Part shown: piece after piece, positions 4,091-20,271 of the stretch
Layout: the number at the start of each line of letters is the position of its first letter
Numbering within the stretch: position 1 is the first letter of the stretch
Assembly (NCBI GenBank): GCA_963784545.1
Contig: CAWARQ010000002.1
Coordinates: 571,512-635,511 of the forward strand
Length of the DNA stretch: 64,000 nucleotides
Direction: 5' to 3'
From: an uncultured Actinomycetota bacterium
GTDB taxonomy: Bacteria > Actinomycetota > Actinomycetes > Propionibacteriales > Nocardioidaceae
Position numbers and translations under genes: made by a program
Notes under the pieces: generated by a model
The model's input: only the letters and a program-made list of their open reading frames with translations
Database searches by the model: none
Told to the model about the DNA's origin: nothing

Positions 4091-7000
4091 TCAGCCGGGC
4101 AGCAGGGCGATCAGCTCGTCCCGGCCCGGTAGCTCGCCTGGCTCCACCAGGTCGTCGGTGCGGACGTAGTAGAACGCCGCCCGCACGCGATCCGGATCCA
4201 CTTCGTGCAGCTCGGCCCAGGCCTGGCGGTAGATCGCCAGCTGGAGCGGGTCGGCGGACTGGGTGCGATTCGTCTTCCAGTCGACGACCAGGAACGAGCC
4301 GTCCTCCTCCCGGTACACGGCGTCGATCCGGCCACGGATCACCTGCCCGTCGAGGACGAGCGAGAACGGTGCCTCCACGGCGTACGGCGCCCGCTCGCCG
4401 AACTGGCCGGCCTCGAACCGCGCGATCACCTCGCGCAGCTCGTCGTCGGAGTCGATGCCCGTGTCGGCCCGGCCCGGGACGTCGTCGTAGTCGATGAGGT
4501 CCTGCTGGCCGAAGCGCGACTCGACCCAGCCGTGGAACCGCGTGCCGAAGCGGGCCGCCGGCATCGGCTCGCGGGGCATCGGCCGGGCTAGCTCCCGGGC
4601 GAACGCCTCGGGATCGGACTCCAGGCGGGCCAGCCCGGTGGCGGACAGGCTCTCGGGCAGCGGAACGGCGACGTCGTGCGACCGGGTGCTCCTGGCCTCC
4701 CGCACGAGCCGGGCGAGCTCCTCGTCCCACTCGGCGACGAGGGCGGCCTGCACCATGTCCAGGCCCTCGTCGGGCGCGGTGGGGTCGGCGGACCGCACCA
4801 GGTCGGCGGCCGCAAGCCGACGGCGCGCCTCCTCGCCCTGCCCGGTCGGCGGCCACGGTCGGGACTGGTCGACCTCGTCGTTCGGGTTGGGCTGCTTGCC
4901 CTCCGGCTTGTCGAGCCAGTGCTCGACCGGCTCGCCCCACTCCTCGAGCTGGTCGCGGACCACGCGCTGGTAGTGCGAGGGTCCGAACGCGGAGGTCCGG
5001 TCACCCCAGACGTACGACGTCACCGCGAGGTGGTGCGCGGCGCGGGTGAACGCGACGTACCCGAGCCGCAGCTCCTCCTCGGCGTCGTGCGCTCGCGTGT
5101 CCATCCGATAGGCGTCCAGCGCCGCCTTGTCGTAGCCCTGGAGGGCGGGCTGGTCGGCCCGGTCGCCGCGCAGCGGGGCCGGCAGCACGGCCGGGGAGGA
5201 GGTCCACAGCGTGCGCGACCGCCCGCTGGGGAACCGGGTCTCCCCCACGCCGACGCAGAACACGTGGGCCCACTCGAGGCCCTTCGCCCGGTGGACCGTC
5301 AGGAGCTTGACCGAGTCAGCGGCGGTCGGAGTCGCCACGTCCAGCCCGTTGCCCTGGCTGTCCTCGGCGGTCAGGTAGGCGAGCAGCGCGGGGAGCGTGA
5401 CGTCCCCGTCGACCGACTGGAACTCCGCCACCGCCTTCACGAACAGGTCGACGTTGTCGCGCCGGGCCGCCGCCGCGGTGGAGGTGGCCGAGGCGAGCTC
5501 GACGTCGACCCCGGTGGTGTCGATGATCCGGCGGACCAGCTCCAGCAGCGGCTCGCCCACGTGACCGCGCAGCCGACGGAGCTCGGTGGCGAGGAGCCCG
5601 AACCGCTCGAGGGCCTCGGCGGAGTACGTCGCCTCCCCCGGTGACTCGAGCGCGTCGTTGAGCGCGGGCAGCTCCGTGGGCTCGATGCCGTCGGCGATCT
5701 GCAGCAGCTGGTCGGCGACCGAGGCCGCCGCCTTCCGACCGCGAGCACCGGAGATCTCGGCCGCGCGCAGCGCGAGCAGCCGCAGGTCTCGGGGACCGAT
5801 GGCCCAGCGGGCTCCGGTGAGCAGGGTGAGCATCGAGGGATTGGCGGTGACGTCGTGCAGCAGCGTGAGCGTGGCGACGATCTCGGCGACCTCGGGCAGC
5901 CGGATCAGCCCGGAGAGCCCGACGATCTCGACCGGGACGTCGACGCTCGTGAGCACGTCGTACACCTCCTCGGCCTGGGCGTTGTCGCGCGACAGCACGC
6001 CGATGTCCGACCACGCGGCTCCCCCGTCATGGGCGGCCCGGACGGCCTGCGCCAGCCACTCCAGCTCCTCCGCGGCCCGCTCGAACACCAGGGTCTCCAC
6101 CGTGCCCTCCCCGGCGTCCTCGGCCGGTTGCAGGCGGGCGACCTTGTCGCCGAACCGCTCCAGCAACGGCTCGGCGAGCCGGTTGGCGACCTCGAGGATC
6201 CGTCGGTCCGAGCGCCGGTTGATCGTCAGTGGCAGGCGGTGGACCCGGCCGTCGGCCGCCGGGAAGGTCTCGTCGAAGTTCAAGATGTTGGAGACCGAGG
6301 CTCCGCGCCAGCCGTAGATCGCCTGGTTGGGGTCGCCGACCGCCATGACCGGGTGCCCCCCGGAGAACAGCCGGGCCAGCATCGTGGCCTGGGCGACCGA
6401 GGTGTCCTGGTACTCGTCGAGCAGCACGACCCGGAACCGCTCCCGCTCGAGCGCCCCCACCTCCGGCTGCTCCTCGACCAGCCGGGCCGCCAGCTCGATC
6501 TGGTCGCCGAAGTCCATGAGGCCGAGGTCGGCCTTGAGCCGGCGGTAGCCGGCCACCAGCTGGAGCAGCTCGGAGCGACGGTCGATGGCGTGGACCGCCT
6601 TGCCGATCGCCTCCAGGTAGGTCTTGCGCGCCTTGCCCGCCTCCTCCTCGGCGTACGCCGCGGCGAACCCGGCGCGCGCCTCGGCATCGACGGCGCGGAC
6701 GTCGGCCTCGGAGGCGAGGTGCTCGCTCATCGCACCGTCGAGGGCGAGGAGGTTCTGGATCGCGGTGGCCGGATGGTCGGTCAGGGACTCGATGTGACCG
6801 GTGAACCGCTCGATCACCCGCGCACCGAGCTGGTAGCGCGAGGCGTCGGTGATGACCCGGGTGTCCGGCTCGTGCCCGATCCGCAGGCCGTGGTCGGTCA
6901 ACAGGGTGGCGGCGTAGGCGTGATAGGTGGCGACGGTGGGCTCGAGCACGTCCTCGCCCTCCACGACGACGGACCGGTCGAGCAGGCCGGCGTCGCCGAG

Positions 7001-10200: not shown

Positions 10201-10485
10201 CGAGGCGATCGGCTGCGCGAGGGCGCGCCCGAGCCGCGCCGTGATCCGGTCGCGCAGCTGCTCGGCCGCCTTGCGGGAGAACGTGAGGGCCAGGATCGCC
10301 TCCGGCTTCACGCCGTCCTCGACCTTGCGGACGATCGCCTCGACCAGCGTCGTGGTCTTGCCGGTGCCGGGACCGGCCAGGACCAGGAGCGGCCCTCCGG
10401 TGTGGTCGACCACTCGCTGCTGCTCGGCGTCGAGCACCGGCGGCGCGAGGTGCGGCCGCTCGCGCACGAGCGTGTAGGTGGTCAT
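7270..10485 (-). CDS. adnA: Helicase-nuclease AdnA (UvrD-like plus nuclease with Fe-S cysteines)
   Basis: AGPGTGKTT, VDEYQDT, TAHRSKGLEW, GFADRLE...VVDFKT, CPAQW and CRECQFVAICP. Start set to ATG 10485 (MTTYTL), with a GAGGCGG SD. Confidence 0.88.
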   Translation of the reverse strand: MTTYTLVRERPHLAPPVLDAEQQRVVDHTGGPLLVLAGPGTGKTTTLVEAIVRKVEDGVKPEAILALTFSRKAAEQLRDRITARLGRALAQPIASTFHSFAYGLVRSSSPRELYDAPLRLLSAPEADVVLRALLTDNPESITWPEQLQRALGTRGFALEVQAVLARAREKGLDPGGLIGLGEDGVPEFLAAGRFLEQYLTILDNLGATDYPDLIRRAVIEAETHREDLRRQFSHVFVDEYQDTDPGQVALLRALAGDGRNLVVVGDPHQSIYGFRGAEVRGILDFPVQFPAPDGSKAPVVVLRRTRRFGPRLMLAAGRVAERLTLTGSIDPTDRAAFAEPLAEPGPHGDGRVEVFTFDTERAEAERVGDLLRRAHLEDGLAWHDMAVLVRSGRATLPALRRALAAAGVPVEIAGDDLPLVLDPAVRPLLDAVRAVVNLDNHDPDDSGYLDPGRIEGLLLSPLGGLDASDLRALVRRLRARDKAQPPTSGPRPSRELLRLAVVQHGFLDGLSGPETERAARLAGLLRSGADLLIGGAGAEDLIWHLWNGTSWPRRLRDQVEAGGASARRAHRDLDSVVALFDLAGRAAEQREHVGVADFLASLSAQQIPADTLAEKGVRGSAVRLLTAHRSKGLEWELVVVAHVQQEGWPDVRRRTSLLGADRIGLHADGRAQLVEPPSARALLMEERRLFYVACTRARRRLVVTAVQSPEDDGEQPSRFLAELGVTIEHRDGRPPRPLSLGGLVAELRRTAADPATPVPLREAAARRLGALAAEEVDGRALVPAADPSSWWGTRSATRAVTPVRDPGRPVPVSASMLKSMVVCPAQWYFEREAGGVSLAHQAANLGQILHALAERVAKQELPADPAVLMAEVDAVWDRLAFRTPWSRHREHERIRRAVDRFVAWHESNPRELIAAEAKFASTVTIDDQEIELVGFADRLELDADGGVVVVDFKTSRGAPTGPQVKSDLQLALYQYAVDTGAVDEQLGRPARSGGAELVQLGVEDDSTGAKVQPQAAHAEDGPERETLQLGLTRASLLVRAETFPATAGPYCRECQFVAICPAKSAGSVISQ

Positions 10486-10562
10486 GAGGCCGCCTCGCGA
10501 GGACACGAGCGCAGCGAGGCCCGGAGCGAGGTGCGCCGAGTGGCCAATCCAGGACCGGTCAT
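10482..10562 (-). mobile_element. 77-bp start-codon-associated element, copy 3; 26-aa mini-ORF MTGPGLATRRTSLRASLRSCPREAAS coupled to adnA
   Basis: Similar to the copies at 17991-18148. ATGACC appears at both ends, and the stop TGA overlaps the adnA ATG. The mobile-element label is inference. Confidence 0.6.
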
Positions 10563-15406: not shown

Positions 15407-16078
15407 CCCCCGTGGGCCCCGACCCAGCAGCGCGCGCAAGGGCAGAGTGCCGACGGGCAGGCCGTGCGCGTCGTAGTAGGCGAACATCGCCGACAGCCAG
15501 GGGTGGCTGCGGGGGTCGGGGACCTGGGTGGCGCCGACCCCCGCCTCTGCGGCCAGCTCGGCGACGGTCGCGACCCGGCTGGCGAGCTCGTACGTCGCGC
15601 CGGCGTGCCCGTCCTCGGCCAGCACGACGGTGGCGACCTCGCCGAGGTCGGCCAGGTCGAGGAAGCCGAAGAGGGCGTCGACGGAGTACGGCACCTCGAG
15701 CGGCCGCGACCGGTCGAAGTTCTGCAGGTAGACGCCGGGCTGGAGGATCGTCCAGGCGAGGCCACTGCGCCGCACCAGGTCCTCCGAGGCGGCCTTGCCG
15801 AGGTGGTGCGGCATCTCCGGCACGTACGGCGAGGCCACCGAGTGGTAGACCACCCGATCGACTCCGGCCGCCCGGAGCGCGCCGAGCGCGGCGGCGACGT
15901 AGGTCGGCTCGTCGGGGTGCAGGTTCGGCGCGATGAGGTACGCCGCCTCGCAGCCGCGCAGACCGGCGGCGAGGTCGTCGCGCCGGCCCAGCGGCACCGG
16001 GTCTGTCCCGCGTGCCTCCAGCGCCGAGGACACCGCACGCCCGGTCTTGCCGTGGCCGCCCAGGATCGCGACGCGCAT
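15392..16078 (-). CDS. NmrA-like NAD(P)H-binding protein
   Basis: VAILGGHGKTGR Rossmann motif, TILQPGVYLQN; TGATG-coupled to hydantoinase B. Confidence 0.85.
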   Translation of the reverse strand: MRVAILGGHGKTGRAVSSALEARGTDPVPLGRRDDLAAGLRGCEAAYLIAPNLHPDEPTYVAAALGALRAAGVDRVVYHSVASPYVPEMPHHLGKAASEDLVRRSGLAWTILQPGVYLQNFDRSRPLEVPYSVDALFGFLDLADLGEVATVVLAEDGHAGATYELASRVATVAELAAEAGVGATQVPDPRSHPWLSAMFAYYDAHGLPVGTLPLRALLGRGPRGLTNL

Positions 16079-17994
16079 CAGACCAGGTCGACCTCGGCGT
16101 GGGCGGCACCGTCGGCGAGCGTGGCGTAACCCGGCCCGCGGTCGAACATCGGAGCCTCCGCGCGCGCGGCCGCCAGCTCGCCCCGGCGGGTGGACGTGGC
16201 GTCAAGGTCCACGGCGAGCGAGTCGTCGTCGAGCGAGCCGGTCAGCACGACGCCGTACTGGTCGGAGGCGGCCTCGAGGGAGACCTTGCGCCAGACCACG
16301 TCGCGACACACGAGCGCCGGGTCGCGTTCAAGAGGGTCCCCCCAGCCGCCGCCACCGGTGGTCCGGATCCGGATCAGCTCTCCGGCCTTCACCGGCTCCG
16401 CGTCGGCCAGCGCGTCGACCTCGCGCTCGTGCGGCCCACCCGGGTCGACGGTCACCTGGAACGGAGAGCCCGCGAGGCCGCCCTTGACCCCCCAGCACGC
16501 CAGGATCGACCGGTCGGCGATCGACATGAAGTGGGCGTCCTTGAGCATCCGGATCTGCTTCTCGTAGCCCAGCCCGCCGCGGAACTTGCCCGCCCCACCG
16601 GAGTCGACCGCCAACGACAGCGATTCGACGAGGAACGGGAACCGCGACTCGGTGAACTCGCTCGGCAGGTTCCGCGAGTCCGGGACGACGTGGATGGTGT
16701 CCTCGCCGTCGGCGTAGTAGCGGCCACCGGAGCCGCCGCCGAGCACCTCCCGCATGAGGTAGGGCCGGCCCTCGCGGTCCTCGCCGTACACACCGGTGTA
16801 GCGGATCGTCTCCTGGTCCGCCGGCATCTTGCCGTCGACCGCCTTCGCGACGACACCGGCGAGGACGCCGAGCAGTCGCAGGATCACGAACGTGCGGGCG
16901 TTGGTCGGCGCCGGGAAGACCGGCGTGATCAGCGTCCCGGGCTCCGGGAAGCGCATCTCGATCAGCGGCACGATCCCCTCGTTGACGTCGAGCTCGGCCA
17001 TCCGCTCCGGCGACTCCGCCAGGTTGCGCAGGATCGGTGCCAGCCACTTCTTGAGGAAGACCCCGTCGGAGTAGTCGCCGCAGTGGTTGATCGGCCCCTT
17101 GGCCTGCGGGCCGGTGCCGTCGAAGTCGAGGACCAGCCGCTCACCGTCGGGGTCGTCGGCGGCCGTCCGGGTCAGGGTGATCCGCTGCGTGTGCAGCCGC
17201 GGCTCGTCGACGCCGTCGTGCTCGGCGTAGTCCTCCCAGGTCCAGGTCCCGACCGGGATCACCGACAGGATCTCGCGGCGGTACGTCGTGGTGGTGCGGT
17301 CGAGGATGGCGTCGAAGCAGGACTCCACGACCTCGACGCCGTACCGGTCGAACATCTCCCCCAGCCGGCGCGCGCCCATGAGGCAGGCGCTGCACTCGGC
17401 GTCCAGGTCGGCCGCCAGCGACTCGGGCATCCGGGAGTTGCGGGTCATGATCGCCAGCGCCGACCGGTTGGGGACGCCGGCGTCCCACAGCTTGATCGGC
17501 GGGACCATCAGCCCCTCCTCGAAGACGCTGGTCGCCTGGCTCGGCATGGAGCCGGGGACCGCGCCGCCGATGTCGTCGTGGTGGCCGAACGCCTGGACGA
17601 ACGCGACCACCCTGCCCGCGGAGAGGACAGGGACAGTCACGCAGAGGTCCGGGAGATGGCCGATGCCGCCCTCGGAGCGGTAGACGTCGTTGTGGAAGAA
17701 GACGTCGCCCTCCCTCATCTCCGCCAACGGGAAGTCGCGCGCGACCGGGTGGACGAGAGCGGAGTACGACCGACCGGTCAGCTTGCGCAACAGCCGGTCG
17801 TGGATGCCCGCACGGAAGTCGTGGGCGTCGCGGATCATCGGGCTTCGGCTGGTGCGCGCGATCGCGGTCTCGACCTCCATCTCGACGCTCGCCAGAGTGC
17901 CCTGGACGATCTCGACCAGCACCGGGTCGGCGCCCGCGCCGGCATCGTCGGTGAGGAAGCCGTACGGGAACTGGGTGGGTGCGCGCCTGCTCAT
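16078..17994 (-). CDS. Hydantoinase B/5-oxoprolinase family subunit
   Basis: RTSRSPMIRDAHDF, GGIGHLPD, GHHDDIGGAVPGSM, SIADRS, IRTTGGGGWGDPLERD. Start set to ATG 17994. Confidence 0.92.
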   Translation of the reverse strand: MSRRAPTQFPYGFLTDDAGAGADPVLVEIVQGTLASVEMEVETAIARTSRSPMIRDAHDFRAGIHDRLLRKLTGRSYSALVHPVARDFPLAEMREGDVFFHNDVYRSEGGIGHLPDLCVTVPVLSAGRVVAFVQAFGHHDDIGGAVPGSMPSQATSVFEEGLMVPPIKLWDAGVPNRSALAIMTRNSRMPESLAADLDAECSACLMGARRLGEMFDRYGVEVVESCFDAILDRTTTTYRREILSVIPVGTWTWEDYAEHDGVDEPRLHTQRITLTRTAADDPDGERLVLDFDGTGPQAKGPINHCGDYSDGVFLKKWLAPILRNLAESPERMAELDVNEGIVPLIEMRFPEPGTLITPVFPAPTNARTFVILRLLGVLAGVVAKAVDGKMPADQETIRYTGVYGEDREGRPYLMREVLGGGSGGRYYADGEDTIHVVPDSRNLPSEFTESRFPFLVESLSLAVDSGGAGKFRGGLGYEKQIRMLKDAHFMSIADRSILACWGVKGGLAGSPFQVTVDPGGPHEREVDALADAEPVKAGELIRIRTTGGGGWGDPLERDPALVCRDVVWRKVSLEAASDQYGVVLTGSLDDDSLAVDLDATSTRRGELAAARAEAPMFDRGPGYATLADGAAHAEVDLV

Positions 17995-18148
17995 GAGGCC
18001 ACCTCGCGAGGACACGAGCGAAGCGAGGCCCGGAGGGAGGTGTGCCGAATGGGCGATTCAATCCGGCTCATGAGGCCACCTCGCGAGGACACGAGCGCAG
18101 CGAGGCCCGGAGTGGGGTGTGCCGAATGGGCGATTCAGAACTGCTCAT
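17991..18148 (-). mobile_element. Two tandem 77-bp elements, each encoding a 26-aa mini-ORF, between hydantoinase A and B
   Basis: Units 17991-18067 and 18068-18144 are near-identical. Mini-ORFs are 18068-18148 (MSSSESPIRHTPLRASLRSCPREVAS) and 17991-18071 (MSRIESPIRHTSLRASLRSCPREVAS). ATGA overlaps occur at 18145-18148, 18068-18071 and 17991-17994. Confidence 0.8.
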
Positions 18149-20271
18149 TGCCCTGCCTCCGTGCGGGGGTTTCGAGACGCTCGCTGCGCTCGCTCCTCAA
18201 CCACCGACGACCTCCGGACGATCAGGTTGCGGTAGTCGTCGACGGTCGCGGTGAAGCCGGGGTGGATCGGCACGGTGGACCCGAACTCCTCGACGATCGC
18301 CGGACCGGGGACGACGGACCCAGGCCCCAGGTCGGGGCGCCACAGCAGCGGCGTCTCGACATACCCGTCGGTGGCGTCGAAGCAGACCTGGCGGGTGCCT
18401 CGCTCCGTCGGGTCGGGGGTTGCGCCGCCTGGCTCGGACCTACGGATCTCCGGGCGCTGGATCGGGCCGATGCCGCTGACCCGGAGGTTCACCCACTCGA
18501 CCTGCTGGCTCGGGTCGGTGGCGAAGTCGTAGCCGTAGAGCGCGCGGTGCTCGGTGTGGAAGGTGTCCGCGACCGCGGTCAGCGCCGCTGCGTCCAGGTC
18601 GCCGGCCGGCACCGGCACCCGGACCTCGAAGGCCTGGCCGAAGTAGCGAAGGTCGGCGGTGCGCTCGAAGACGTGCGCATCACCGGGGAATCCCTCCTTG
18701 TCCAGGGCGATCCGGGCCTGGTCGGTGAGCTCGGCGTACACGGCGTCGACCTCTCCCGCGTCCAGCGACTCCGCGAGCGCGACGTGGGTCTGGACGTAGT
18801 CGTTCTTCACGTCGACCGTGAGCAGCCCGAAGGCGGACACGTTGCCGGGGTCCGGTGGCACGAGGACCGTCGGGATGCCGAGGATGTCCATCAGCCGGCA
18901 CAGCAACAACGAACCGGAGCCGCCGAAGGTGGTGAGCGTGAAGTCCCGGACGTCGAGGCCGCGCTTGACGGTGACCTGCCGCAGGGCGTTGGCCTGGTTC
19001 CACGCCGAGATTTCCAGGACGCCGGCCGCGGCCGCCTCGGGGCTCAGCCCGAGCTGCGCGGCGAGAGCCGTCACGCCGCTCTTCGCCGCCTCGGCGTCGA
19101 GAGGGATCTCGCCCCCGAGCAGGTGCGGCGGGATGCGGCCGAGGAAGAGGTGCGCGTCGGTGATGGTGACGTCGCTCCCGCCCTTGGCGTAGCAGAGCGG
19201 ACCTGGGTCCGCGCCCGCGCTCTGCGGCCCGACCTTGAGCGTGCCCTCGGGGCTCAGCCACGCGATCGAGCCGCCGCCCGCGCCGACCGTGACGACGTCG
19301 ATCATCGGGATCTTGCTGGGGAACGCGCCGACGCTCCCCTCGGTCGTGAGCGTCGGGTTGCCGTCGATCACCACGCTGACGTCGGTCGAGGTTCCTCCGC
19401 CGTCGCTGGTCAGCACCCGGTCGAAGCCGGCGACCTTCGCGATCAGCGCGGCACCCAGGGCTCCGGCCGCCGGTCCCGACAGCACCGTGGTGATCGGCTG
19501 GTGCACGACCTCGTCGGCGGAGAGGACGCCGCCGTTGGACTTCATCACGTAGAACGGCAGCGAGCGCTGGGCGTTGTCGGCCAGCCGGCTCTTGATGTTG
19601 TTGACGTACGCCGAGAGCCGAGGCTTGACCGCGGCATCGACCAGCGTCGTCATCGCGCGCTCGTACTCGCGGTACTCGCGCAGCACCTCGCTGGAGATCG
19701 AGACGACCGCGTCCGGGTGCTCCTCGCTGAGGATGACCCGCATCCGCTCCTCGTGCGCGGGGTTGGCGTAGGCGTGCAGGAAGCAGACGCCGAGGGTGTT
19801 GATCCCCTGGTCCTTGAACCAGCGCGCAGCCGTGCGCGCCAACTCCTCGTCGAACGGCCGGACCTCGGCGCCGGTGAAGTCCAGGCGGCCGCCGACCTCC
19901 TTGACCAGGTGTCGCGGGACGATCCGGTCGGGCTTGACCCAGAAGTAGGAGTTGCCGTACCCGTCGGGCACCGACTGGCGAGCGATCTCCAGCATCGCGC
20001 CGTAGCCCTCGGTGGTGAGGTAGCCGAGCGCTTCGACCTTGCCCTCGAGCAGCTGGTTGGTGGCCACGGTCGTGCCGTGGGAGACGGCGGTGACGGCGTC
20101 GTACTCGGCGCCGATGAGGTCCAGCACCTTGTCGATCCCGGCCAGGAACCCGTCGGCGGGGTTGCTCGGGGTGGACGGCGTCTTGGTCGTGACGACCCGG
20201 CCGGAGTCCTCCTCGAAGGCGACGACGTCGGTGAACGTGCCCCCGGTGTCGATCCCGATCCTGATCCGCAT
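18145..20271 (-). CDS. Hydantoinase A/5-oxoprolinase family ATP-binding subunit
   Basis: IGIDTGGTFTD, HGTTVATN, SGPAAG, DGGGTSTDV, GAGGGSIA, GPQSAGADPGP; 708 aa. Confidence 0.93.
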   Translation of the reverse strand: MRIRIGIDTGGTFTDVVAFEEDSGRVVTTKTPSTPSNPADGFLAGIDKVLDLIGAEYDAVTAVSHGTTVATNQLLEGKVEALGYLTTEGYGAMLEIARQSVPDGYGNSYFWVKPDRIVPRHLVKEVGGRLDFTGAEVRPFDEELARTAARWFKDQGINTLGVCFLHAYANPAHEERMRVILSEEHPDAVVSISSEVLREYREYERAMTTLVDAAVKPRLSAYVNNIKSRLADNAQRSLPFYVMKSNGGVLSADEVVHQPITTVLSGPAAGALGAALIAKVAGFDRVLTSDGGGTSTDVSVVIDGNPTLTTEGSVGAFPSKIPMIDVVTVGAGGGSIAWLSPEGTLKVGPQSAGADPGPLCYAKGGSDVTITDAHLFLGRIPPHLLGGEIPLDAEAAKSGVTALAAQLGLSPEAAAAGVLEISAWNQANALRQVTVKRGLDVRDFTLTTFGGSGSLLLCRLMDILGIPTVLVPPDPGNVSAFGLLTVDVKNDYVQTHVALAESLDAGEVDAVYAELTDQARIALDKEGFPGDAHVFERTADLRYFGQAFEVRVPVPAGDLDAAALTAVADTFHTEHRALYGYDFATDPSQQVEWVNLRVSGIGPIQRPEIRRSEPGGATPDPTERGTRQVCFDATDGYVETPLLWRPDLGPGSVVPGPAIVEEFGSTVPIHPGFTATVDDYRNLIVRRSSVVEERAQRASRNPRTEAGQ

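Follow-up and report, generated by a model that had tools for sequence, protein, structure and literature searches.

A recently mobile small repeat with the anatomy of mycobacterial interspersed repetitive units at the hydantoinase A-B gene junction of a Nocardioidaceae genome

The two subunits of a hydantoinase/oxoprolinase are encoded on the minus strand of a 64,000-nucleotide (nt) stretch of DNA from an uncultured Nocardioidaceae bacterium (contig CAWARQ010000002.1 of assembly GCA_963784545.1; hereafter the window, to which all plain coordinates refer). Between the two genes, at 17991-18148 on the same strand, lie two tandem copies of a 77-nt unit that we call the relay repeat. The upstream gene, hyuA (18145-20271, 708 aa), was taken from a list of open reading frames (ORFs) and matches the Pfam families Hydant_A_N, Hydantoinase_A (E 5e-91) and Hydant_A_C, and the downstream gene, hyuB (16078-17994, 638 aa), starts ATGAGCAGG at 17994 and matches Pfam Hydantoinase_B (E 1e-133). 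Unit 1 (18072-18148) and unit 2 (17995-18071) were delimited from the sequence, by Tandem Repeats Finder and by family profile searches. The TGA stop codon of hyuA (18147-18145) overlaps the ATG of unit 1 (18148-18146), which opens a mini-ORF of 26 codons (mini-ORF 1, 18148-18068, also in the ORF list; MSSSESPIRHTPLRASLRSCPREVAS). The TGA of this frame overlaps the ATG of unit 2, which opens a second frame of 26 codons (mini-ORF 2, 18071-17991; MSRIESPIRHTSLRASLRSCPREVAS), and the TGA of the second overlaps the ATG of hyuB. The tetranucleotide ATGA thus stands at 18148-18145 (hyuA/unit 1), 18071-18068 (unit 1/unit 2) and 17994-17991 (the hyuB start), and the minus strand reads ...GGAGGCAGGGCA-ATGAGCAGTTCTGAATCG...GAGGTGGCCTC-ATGAGCCGGATTGAATCG...GAGGTGGCCTC-ATGAGCAGGCGCGCACCC... 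across the junction. An earlier note on this DNA had described two 77-nt units whose 26-codon ORFs chain hyuA to hyuB by ATGA overlaps, with ATGAGC at all three junctions, and both the chain and the hexamer (3 of 3 junctions) were seen as described.

The two units are similar but not identical. Tandem Repeats Finder reports a period of 77, 1.9 copies and 95% matches for the array (score 277), and in an alignment the two units disagree at 7 of 77 positions, with four of the differences within positions 7-11. The starts of unit 1 and hyuB agree over 8 nt (ATGAGCAG). An alignment of 30 distinct copies of the repeat divides the unit into three zones: a variable 5' third that starts with RTGA (R, A or G), a near-invariant core, CCGGGCCTCGCTNCGCTCGTGTCCTC, and a tail resembling a Shine-Dalgarno (SD) sequence. 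The invariant 25-nt core, defined by columns at least 90% conserved across the 30 copies, lies at 18085-18109 in unit 1 (CGGGCCTCGCTGCGCTCGTGTCCTC) and at 18008-18032 in unit 2 (CGGGCCTCGCTTCGCTCGTGTCCTC). The conserved tail is C(A/G)(C/G)GAGG(C/T)GGCCTC, in which the GAGG columns are kept in at least 90% of copies and are well spaced from the following start. At the hyuA-hyuB junction the SD-like GAGGTGG lies at 18076-18082 in unit 1 and at 17999-18005 in unit 2, and in each case the 4 nt CCTC separate it from the next ATG, that of unit 2 and that of hyuB, respectively.

The relay repeat belongs to a dispersed family in the window's own genome (G000; 3.11 Mb, 71% GC), in which an iterated nhmmer profile found 43 copies and a sequence-only Infernal model 44, at 28 loci. 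Because the same unit recurs with the same junction anatomy at 28 loci, the pattern between hyuA and hyuB lies far beyond chance. Nine of the loci hold arrays of two or three units, with a period of 77 nt at eight and of 89 nt at the ninth (C4:1388075; C2, C3 and C4 are contigs of G000). Periods measured between anchors, with no reading frame assumed, were 77 nt thirteen times and 89 nt once; an apparent 71-nt period proved to be due to a false anchor beside a tRNA gene. Unit lengths in this genome are 77, 89 (+12) and 101 (+24) nt, the steps being multiples of 3. A length of 77 nt leaves a remainder of 2 on division by 3, so that an ORF beginning at the 5' RTG of a unit, whose frame is open, stops at the TGA that overlaps the next RTG.

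The placement of the family relative to genes is strict. At 28 of 28 loci a co-oriented ORF with an RTGA start lies directly 3' of the unit, beginning exactly one base past the last position of the model. The earlier note had proposed tabulating copies against start codons, and the outcome is clearly non-random: RTGA starts about 35% of the approximately 3,100 genes, a background frequency obtained with a rough heuristic SD-based start picker, which gives p ~1e-13. Third-codon-position GC content (GC3) is at least 0.92 in 27 of the 28 downstream ORFs. In the exception, at C3:27712, GC3 is coding-like at the start of the ORF and averages 0.48 over the 422-codon frame, which suggests a frameshift or pseudogene farther downstream; the unit at this locus (C3:27712-27810) is 101 nt long and carries an internal 24-nt duplication. 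At 18 of the 28 loci an upstream same-strand gene of high GC3 stops at unit positions 2-4, forming the RTGA overlap seen at the end of hyuA. One further copy is present in the window, a single unit on the minus strand of a divergent intergenic region (10486-10562, found by the family searches), whose first letters are ATGACC and which abuts, at 10485, the ATGACC start of a gene of 1071 aa.

Comparison with other genomes indicates that the hyuA-hyuB junction acquired its units by insertion. We retrieved 80 orthologous hyuA loci, mostly from Nocardioides and other Nocardioidaceae, among which the closest HyuA relatives are 75-86% identical to the HyuA of the window (loci retrieved in this study carry L-numbers). 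At about 60 of the 80 orthologous junctions the hyuA stop and the hyuB start overlap directly (gap -4, RTGA), including the closest orthologs L062 (86% identity, ...GAGTCATGAGCCGACGCGCACC) and L061, and hyuB of the orthologs begins (A/G)TGAGC-CG-CG-GCACCCACCCAGTTCCC right on the hyuA stop. The original ATGA overlap that the earlier note had postulated as an empty site was thus found. Because the orthologous junctions are plain RTGA overlaps, we conclude that the hyuA-hyuB site was once empty.

A second dispersed repeat, which we call element B, has also contributed to this locus. A copy of element B (GGTGGTTGAGGAGCGAGCGCAGCGAGCGTCTCGAAACC..., found with blastn) occupies 18161-18208 on the minus strand and is read in frame as the tail of HyuA, where it encodes about 20 extra C-terminal residues (SVVEERAQRASRNPRTEAGQ) past the Pfam domain; the Pfam match stops at residue 683, and alignments with orthologs reach only to about residues 687-690. 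The sequence that follows element B (18149-18160) provides the GGAGG that now precedes mini-ORF 1. Element B is not present in the closest orthologs L062, L061 and L005, and two other orthologous loci, L028 and L045, contain related inserts with an identical 3' end, ...GAAACCCCGGAACGGAGGCAGGGCAGTGAGCAG, without the 77-nt units. Because element B-related inserts occur at these two loci without 77-nt units and the closest orthologs are plain, we conclude that the order of events was a plain ATGA overlap, the arrival of element B in the 3' end of hyuA, and then the two 77-nt units.

Similar inserts were observed at this junction in other species. A 71-nt ATGA-to-ATGA unit of unrelated appearance lies at the hyuA-hyuB junction of L012, from a Nocardioides-like metagenome-assembled genome (MAG; 5095-5170). 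The unit is itself one of at least 8 dispersed copies (loci L285-L291 of G046), with one tandem pair and with all copies on RTGA starts. With lower confidence, we suggest that the hyuA-hyuB junction has been colonized independently in other species, as in L012. In L027, L044 and L039 (approximately 5060-5190), small repeats such as GGTTTCGACAAGCTCAACCACC and CTCGACAGGCTCG form in-frame N-terminal extensions after the HyuB start, and in L056 a 12-nt duplication (AGCCCAGAGATG) doubles the start codon.

The relay repeat has been mobile recently, and its arrays change in length; the strongest evidence for this comes from pairs of filled and empty sites and from a copy-number difference between close relatives. 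The exact junction sequence has no match in metagenomes. A metagenome scan with the 3' end of the subfamily recovered eight contigs from close relatives, whose downstream proteins are 87-94% identical to those of G000. At five of the gene starts on these contigs exactly one 77-nt unit is present in the relative and none in G000, with flanks that align base for base. At a sixth, the same gene start carries one unit in the relative (contig L277) versus three in G000, the single case of this kind. A diverged subfamily ending GGAGGGGATCGC-ATGACC, with 57 matches to the relay-repeat model, was found in a Nocardioidaceae MAG (SSC3), where the unit lengths are 68, 77 and 89 nt plus some -1 variants. 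For 11 of the 13 SSC3 sites that could be mapped to G000, the orthologous gene in G000 lacks a unit. Of the other two, one is common to both genomes (C4:182338); the second shares the intergenic region, with the unit placed at the divergent neighboring gene. SSC3 therefore represents an independent expansion of the relay repeat. No match to the model was found in 24 genomes of the same genus and 16 of the same order. The earlier note had proposed a small mobile repeat that settles on start codons, brings its own SD and restores the stop/start overlap, and every comparative test that the note had suggested supports this proposal.

The note had also described the insertion as a 71-bp insert with a 6-bp target duplication, and this description does not hold for the family in general. 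The direct repeat at the junctions ranges from 3 to 12 nt across loci and reaches 12 nt in tandem arrays only. After RTGA, the match between the 5' end of a unit and the 5' end of its own gene amounts to 45 nt over 23 loci, compared to 22 nt when the pairings of unit and gene were shuffled (p = 0.0002). This excess stems from the arrays, where 1-8 nt beyond RTGA match; the 15 single-copy loci share (R)TGA and 0-2 nt beyond it, which is the chance level. Filled and empty pairs do not place the insertion boundary unambiguously: at L282 the gene retains its own ATGACC and the unit contributes ATGAGC, and at L283 the native ATGACG sits at the 5' end of the unit and the gene now opens with ATGAGC. 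The constant feature is the tetranucleotide (R)TGA at both ends of the unit. The longer repeats probably favor, or result from, tandem amplification.

The two units between hyuA and hyuB very probably represent a small repeat that is non-autonomous, was mobile recently and is of the type known as mycobacterial interspersed repetitive units (MIRUs). When such a unit inserts into a native ATGA overlap, as between hyuA and hyuB, the upstream copy of the start keeps the old SD and the old overlap with the upstream stop, and the downstream gene gains the SD of the unit. A ribosome leaving hyuA, or one loading on the old SD, could then translate mini-ORF 1, terminate at ATGA, pass on to mini-ORF 2 and from there reach hyuB. 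Alternatively, ribosomes may load directly on the SD of the last unit. In either case the synthesis of HyuB and its coupling to HyuA would survive the insertion, which would then be nearly neutral and could persist. The arrays gain and lose units, probably through recombination or slippage involving the direct repeats that flank them. The translation of the mini-ORFs and re-initiation along the relay are inferred from the sequence.

The relay principle is not new. It corresponds to the published MIRU model, described by Supply et al. (1997, Mol Microbiol 26:991) and summarized in PMC12548453 and PMC3184786. MIRUs are 40-100 bp long and present in 40-50 copies, have tetranucleotide direct repeats and empty and filled sites, and contain an ORF whose ends overlap codons of the neighboring genes (Delihas 2011, PMC3184786). 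The relay repeat, at 77 nt with variants of 89 and 101 nt, is comparable in size to MIRUs, which include classes of 77 bp and 53 bp, and its 43-44 copies with arrays at nine loci resemble the approximately 40-50 MIRU copies, which are often in tandem. Both are found inside operons or immediately ahead of genes, in the sense orientation, and in both a small ORF overlaps the stop and start of its neighbors (-4 spacing). Direct repeats of a tetranucleotide, tandem arrays and sites that are empty in some relatives and filled in others are further shared features. MIRU arrays vary in copy number between strains, and the one case seen for the relay repeat (1 unit in L277 versus 3 in G000) would fit such variation. 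MIRUs are also co-transcribed as part of polycistronic mRNA, as the units of the relay repeat may be.

The two repeats nevertheless differ in sequence and in host. With MIRU292 of M. avium subsp. paratuberculosis (PMC7977185) as the seed, we collected over 100 genuine MIRU loci across many species of Mycobacterium, L123-L202 among them, and their arrays show the same ATGA...SD...ATGA anatomy, with the consensus ATGACCCGCGCCGGCGACGATGCAGAGCGCAGCGATGAGGAGGAGCGGCGCCAATGA from 72 units. A relay-repeat hidden Markov model (HMM) searched with nhmmer against 584 kb of MIRU loci gave a best E of 2.6. In the reverse search, the best match of the MIRU HMM to G000 (E 0.03) lay elsewhere in the genome, with no match at the units. 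The relay repeat is thus without detectable sequence homology to MIRUs, and only the short motif TCGCTGCGCTC is common to both, on opposite strands relative to the gene. The hosts likewise belong to different orders of Actinomycetota, Nocardioidaceae for the relay repeat and Mycobacterium for MIRUs. We conclude that the relay repeat is real, was recently active and has the architecture that defines MIRUs but is not a relative of theirs in sequence. A limited search of the open-access literature, which is not proof of absence, found nothing relevant on MIRU-like repeats outside mycobacteria.

The best-surviving alternative, which we regard as possible though not probable, is that the units are selfish repeats without a relay. 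HyuB would then arise from de novo initiation on the SD of the last unit only, the mini-ORFs would not be usefully translated, and the terminal RTGAs and the open frame would be by-products of the insertion mechanism and of common descent. An open frame of 26 codons is not rare at 71% GC, and the copies share descent, so their open frames are not independent evidence. Several observations also weigh against our own interpretation. At 10 of 28 loci no upstream gene overlaps the unit; these loci comprise partial copies and units, alone or in arrays, that lie in 5' leaders, in part beside divergent genes, and they have the 5' RTGA all the same. Because no upstream gene overlaps there, the 5' RTGA cannot serve coupling at these 10 loci, which shows that the two RTGAs are above all a mark of insertion. 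A leader copy at C4:487276-487345 is 78 nt long, which places its ATG in frame with the downstream GTG start. In-frame variants of 72 and 75 nt occur in other actinobacterial genera, where the core is inverted relative to the gene (Metallococcus, Flexivirga, Branchiibius, Segeticoccus, Kineosphaera, Mobilicoccus and Nakamurella; L093, L097, L103, L105, L107, L108, L112, L114 and L116-L121). These inverted-core units are bounded by ATGAGC on the sense strand and are 71, 72 or 75 nt long, some forming relays and some being in frame, so a strict relay is not obligatory. Finally, no transposase or other mobilizing gene was identified, and a search for Y1_Tnp (PF01797), the domain of transposases associated with repetitive extragenic palindromic (REP) sequences (RAYTs), gave no matches in G000, SSC3 and three other genomes, with six control genomes positive.

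Other evidence speaks against selfish repeats that lack a relay. The independent length variants in G000 (77, 89 and 101 nt) are all 2 mod 3, as are the length classes of SSC3 (68, 77 and 89 nt) apart from some -1 variants, and no copy that is 1 mod 3 was found at any operon junction in G000. At operon junctions, moreover, the old SD and the stop overlap would lead ribosomes onto the start of the mini-ORF.

A less likely alternative, which we consider improbable, is that the units are a domesticated regulatory module in which the number of units acts as a tunable translation attenuator, or as an internal promoter, and sets the HyuA:HyuB ratio. The difference of one versus three units between relatives at a common site would be consistent with such tuning, and promoter activity is reported for the MIRU-containing spacer of senX3-regX3 in M. 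tuberculosis (PMC4213456). A pairing of 5 bp between the SD and CCUC can also form. The earlier note had proposed a hairpin between GCCTCGC and GAGGTGG, and its 5-bp core does pair in 91% of cells; the 2-bp extension of the helix pairs in 52% of cells only, and the hairpin as a whole has neither compensatory changes nor support from folding. RNA folding of both strands was not better than that of shuffled sequences (z 0.09 and -0.54), which leaves a regulatory module without a structural signal (z 0.09) or covariation, and a scan of the units for promoters and terminators found no sigma-70-like promoter or terminator. The distribution of sites fits neutral insertion better than domestication, since 11 of 13 SSC3 sites differ from G000 and 5 of 6 metagenome sites are empty in G000.

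It is very unlikely that the units are structured REP-like elements, serving as mRNA stabilizers, terminators or protein-binding hairpins and mobilized by a RAYT-type transposase. They are short, GC-rich, dispersed repeats, and the neighboring element B is an imperfect palindrome, but the fold is not significant on either strand, and the consensus fold of 30 copies is weak (-7.6 kcal/mol, 2 covarying pairs). Terminal pairing is limited to the 4-5 nt of ATGAG/CTCAT (AUGA/UCAU in the RNA) that the junction palindrome creates. Rfam gave no match at E up to 1 for window positions 17000-19000, Y1_Tnp is absent from G000 and SSC3 as described above, and a strict sense orientation with genes is not a property of REPs. 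The REP/RAYT explanation is thus largely refuted by the lack of a hairpin signal and of a Y1 transposase. Least credible of all are an assembly artefact and a gene for a functional 26-aa peptide. An artefact is conceivable, as short tandem repeats can be mis-assembled, but 7 of the 77 positions distinguish the two units, and arrays of 77- or 89-nt period, present at nine loci here, recur in metagenome contigs and in the complete chromosome of an independent MAG. As for a peptide gene, the C-terminal half of the peptide is conserved, but this conservation tracks that of the nucleotides of the core, the substitutions show no bias toward synonymous sites, and other lineages read the same core on the opposite strand.

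The relay repeat can also be compared to other small repeats and to other forms of translational coupling. Like miniature inverted-repeat transposable elements (MITEs) such as Correia/NEMIS, RUP and Nezha, it is short, non-autonomous and dispersed and is polymorphic for filled and empty sites; MITEs are often co-transcribed with genes, as the units may be. Unlike MITEs, it has no terminal inverted repeats beyond the 4-5 nt of ATGAG/CTCAT, no target duplication of fixed length and no parent insertion sequence that we could find, and MITEs are not characterized by the strict placement on start codons and the sense orientation seen here. REPs and bacterial interspersed mosaic elements (BIMEs), which are associated with RAYT (Y1) transposases, are likewise abundant, short, GC-rich extragenic repeats that are often clustered, whereas the relay repeat has no stable hairpin, no RAYT gene and an orientation locked to that of genes. 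Rickettsia palindromic elements (RPEs) are a further example of small repeats that are tolerated in expressed regions with the reading frame preserved. RPEs insert in frame within coding sequences and become part of the protein, unlike the units of the relay repeat, which form separate mini-cistrons; element B in the tail of HyuA is more RPE-like. In its proposed working the relay repeat matches native 4-nt stop/start overlaps, at which termination and reinitiation are coupled at ATGA (PMC6728339, PMC10666635), and synthetic bicistronic designs, in which a short leader ORF brings ribosomes to the downstream gene (as cited in PMC12548453). It differs from both in that its leader ORF comes from a mobile repeat and can be chained two or three times.

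Both repeats at this locus affect genome annotation. The units give rise to spurious genes of 26 codons and displace predicted start codons. The gene after the C4:487276 copy is methionyl-tRNA-synthetase-like, with a HIGH motif, and a start at the upstream ATG would add 26 residues to it. Element B extends real proteins by tails that derive from a repeat. With at least 50 copies in G000 (blastn) it is more abundant than the 77-nt unit; its copies (GGTGGTTGAGGAGCGAGCGNAGCGAGCGTCTCGAAACC) occur in both orientations and are often clustered, for example at C2:725193-725960, C4:1159310-1159616 and C4:678311-678619. Element B and the reverse complement of the 77-nt unit core have the 13-mer CGAGCGCAGCGAG in common.

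The core of the relay repeat extends beyond Nocardioidaceae. A search for the exact 25-nt core, with one genome per species, returned 30 stretches, and the exact core is present in other actinobacterial genera; relay repeats of Nocardioidaceae, several Micrococcales genera and Nakamurella contain it without a single change. Four families, namely the relay repeat, authentic MIRUs, element B and the L012 family, carry the 10-mer CGCTNCGCTC or its complement in their conserved part. A common ancestry of these families is possible, but so is chance: G000 contains the 10-mer 73 times, a count that 7% of permuted 10-mers reach. We speculate, while regarding it as rather unlikely, that the 25-nt core serves as the recognition module of a single ancient superfamily, spreading horizontally and directed to RTGA starts by a trans-acting mobilizer, with MIRUs as one of its branches. 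This idea is suggested by the identity of the core across genera, its presence in either orientation relative to the gene and the recurrence of its center, CGCTNCGCTC.

To our knowledge, how MIRUs move has been unexplained since 1997, and research on them has been confined almost entirely to their use as typing markers in slow-growing pathogens. A family unrelated in sequence that has the MIRU anatomy in a harmless, fast-growing soil actinomycete would provide a tractable system, and recent insertion together with copy-number change among close relatives makes such a study practical. The questions that would become accessible include whether chained mini-ORFs do pass ribosomes to the following gene and what machinery places a 77-nt element exactly on a start codon.

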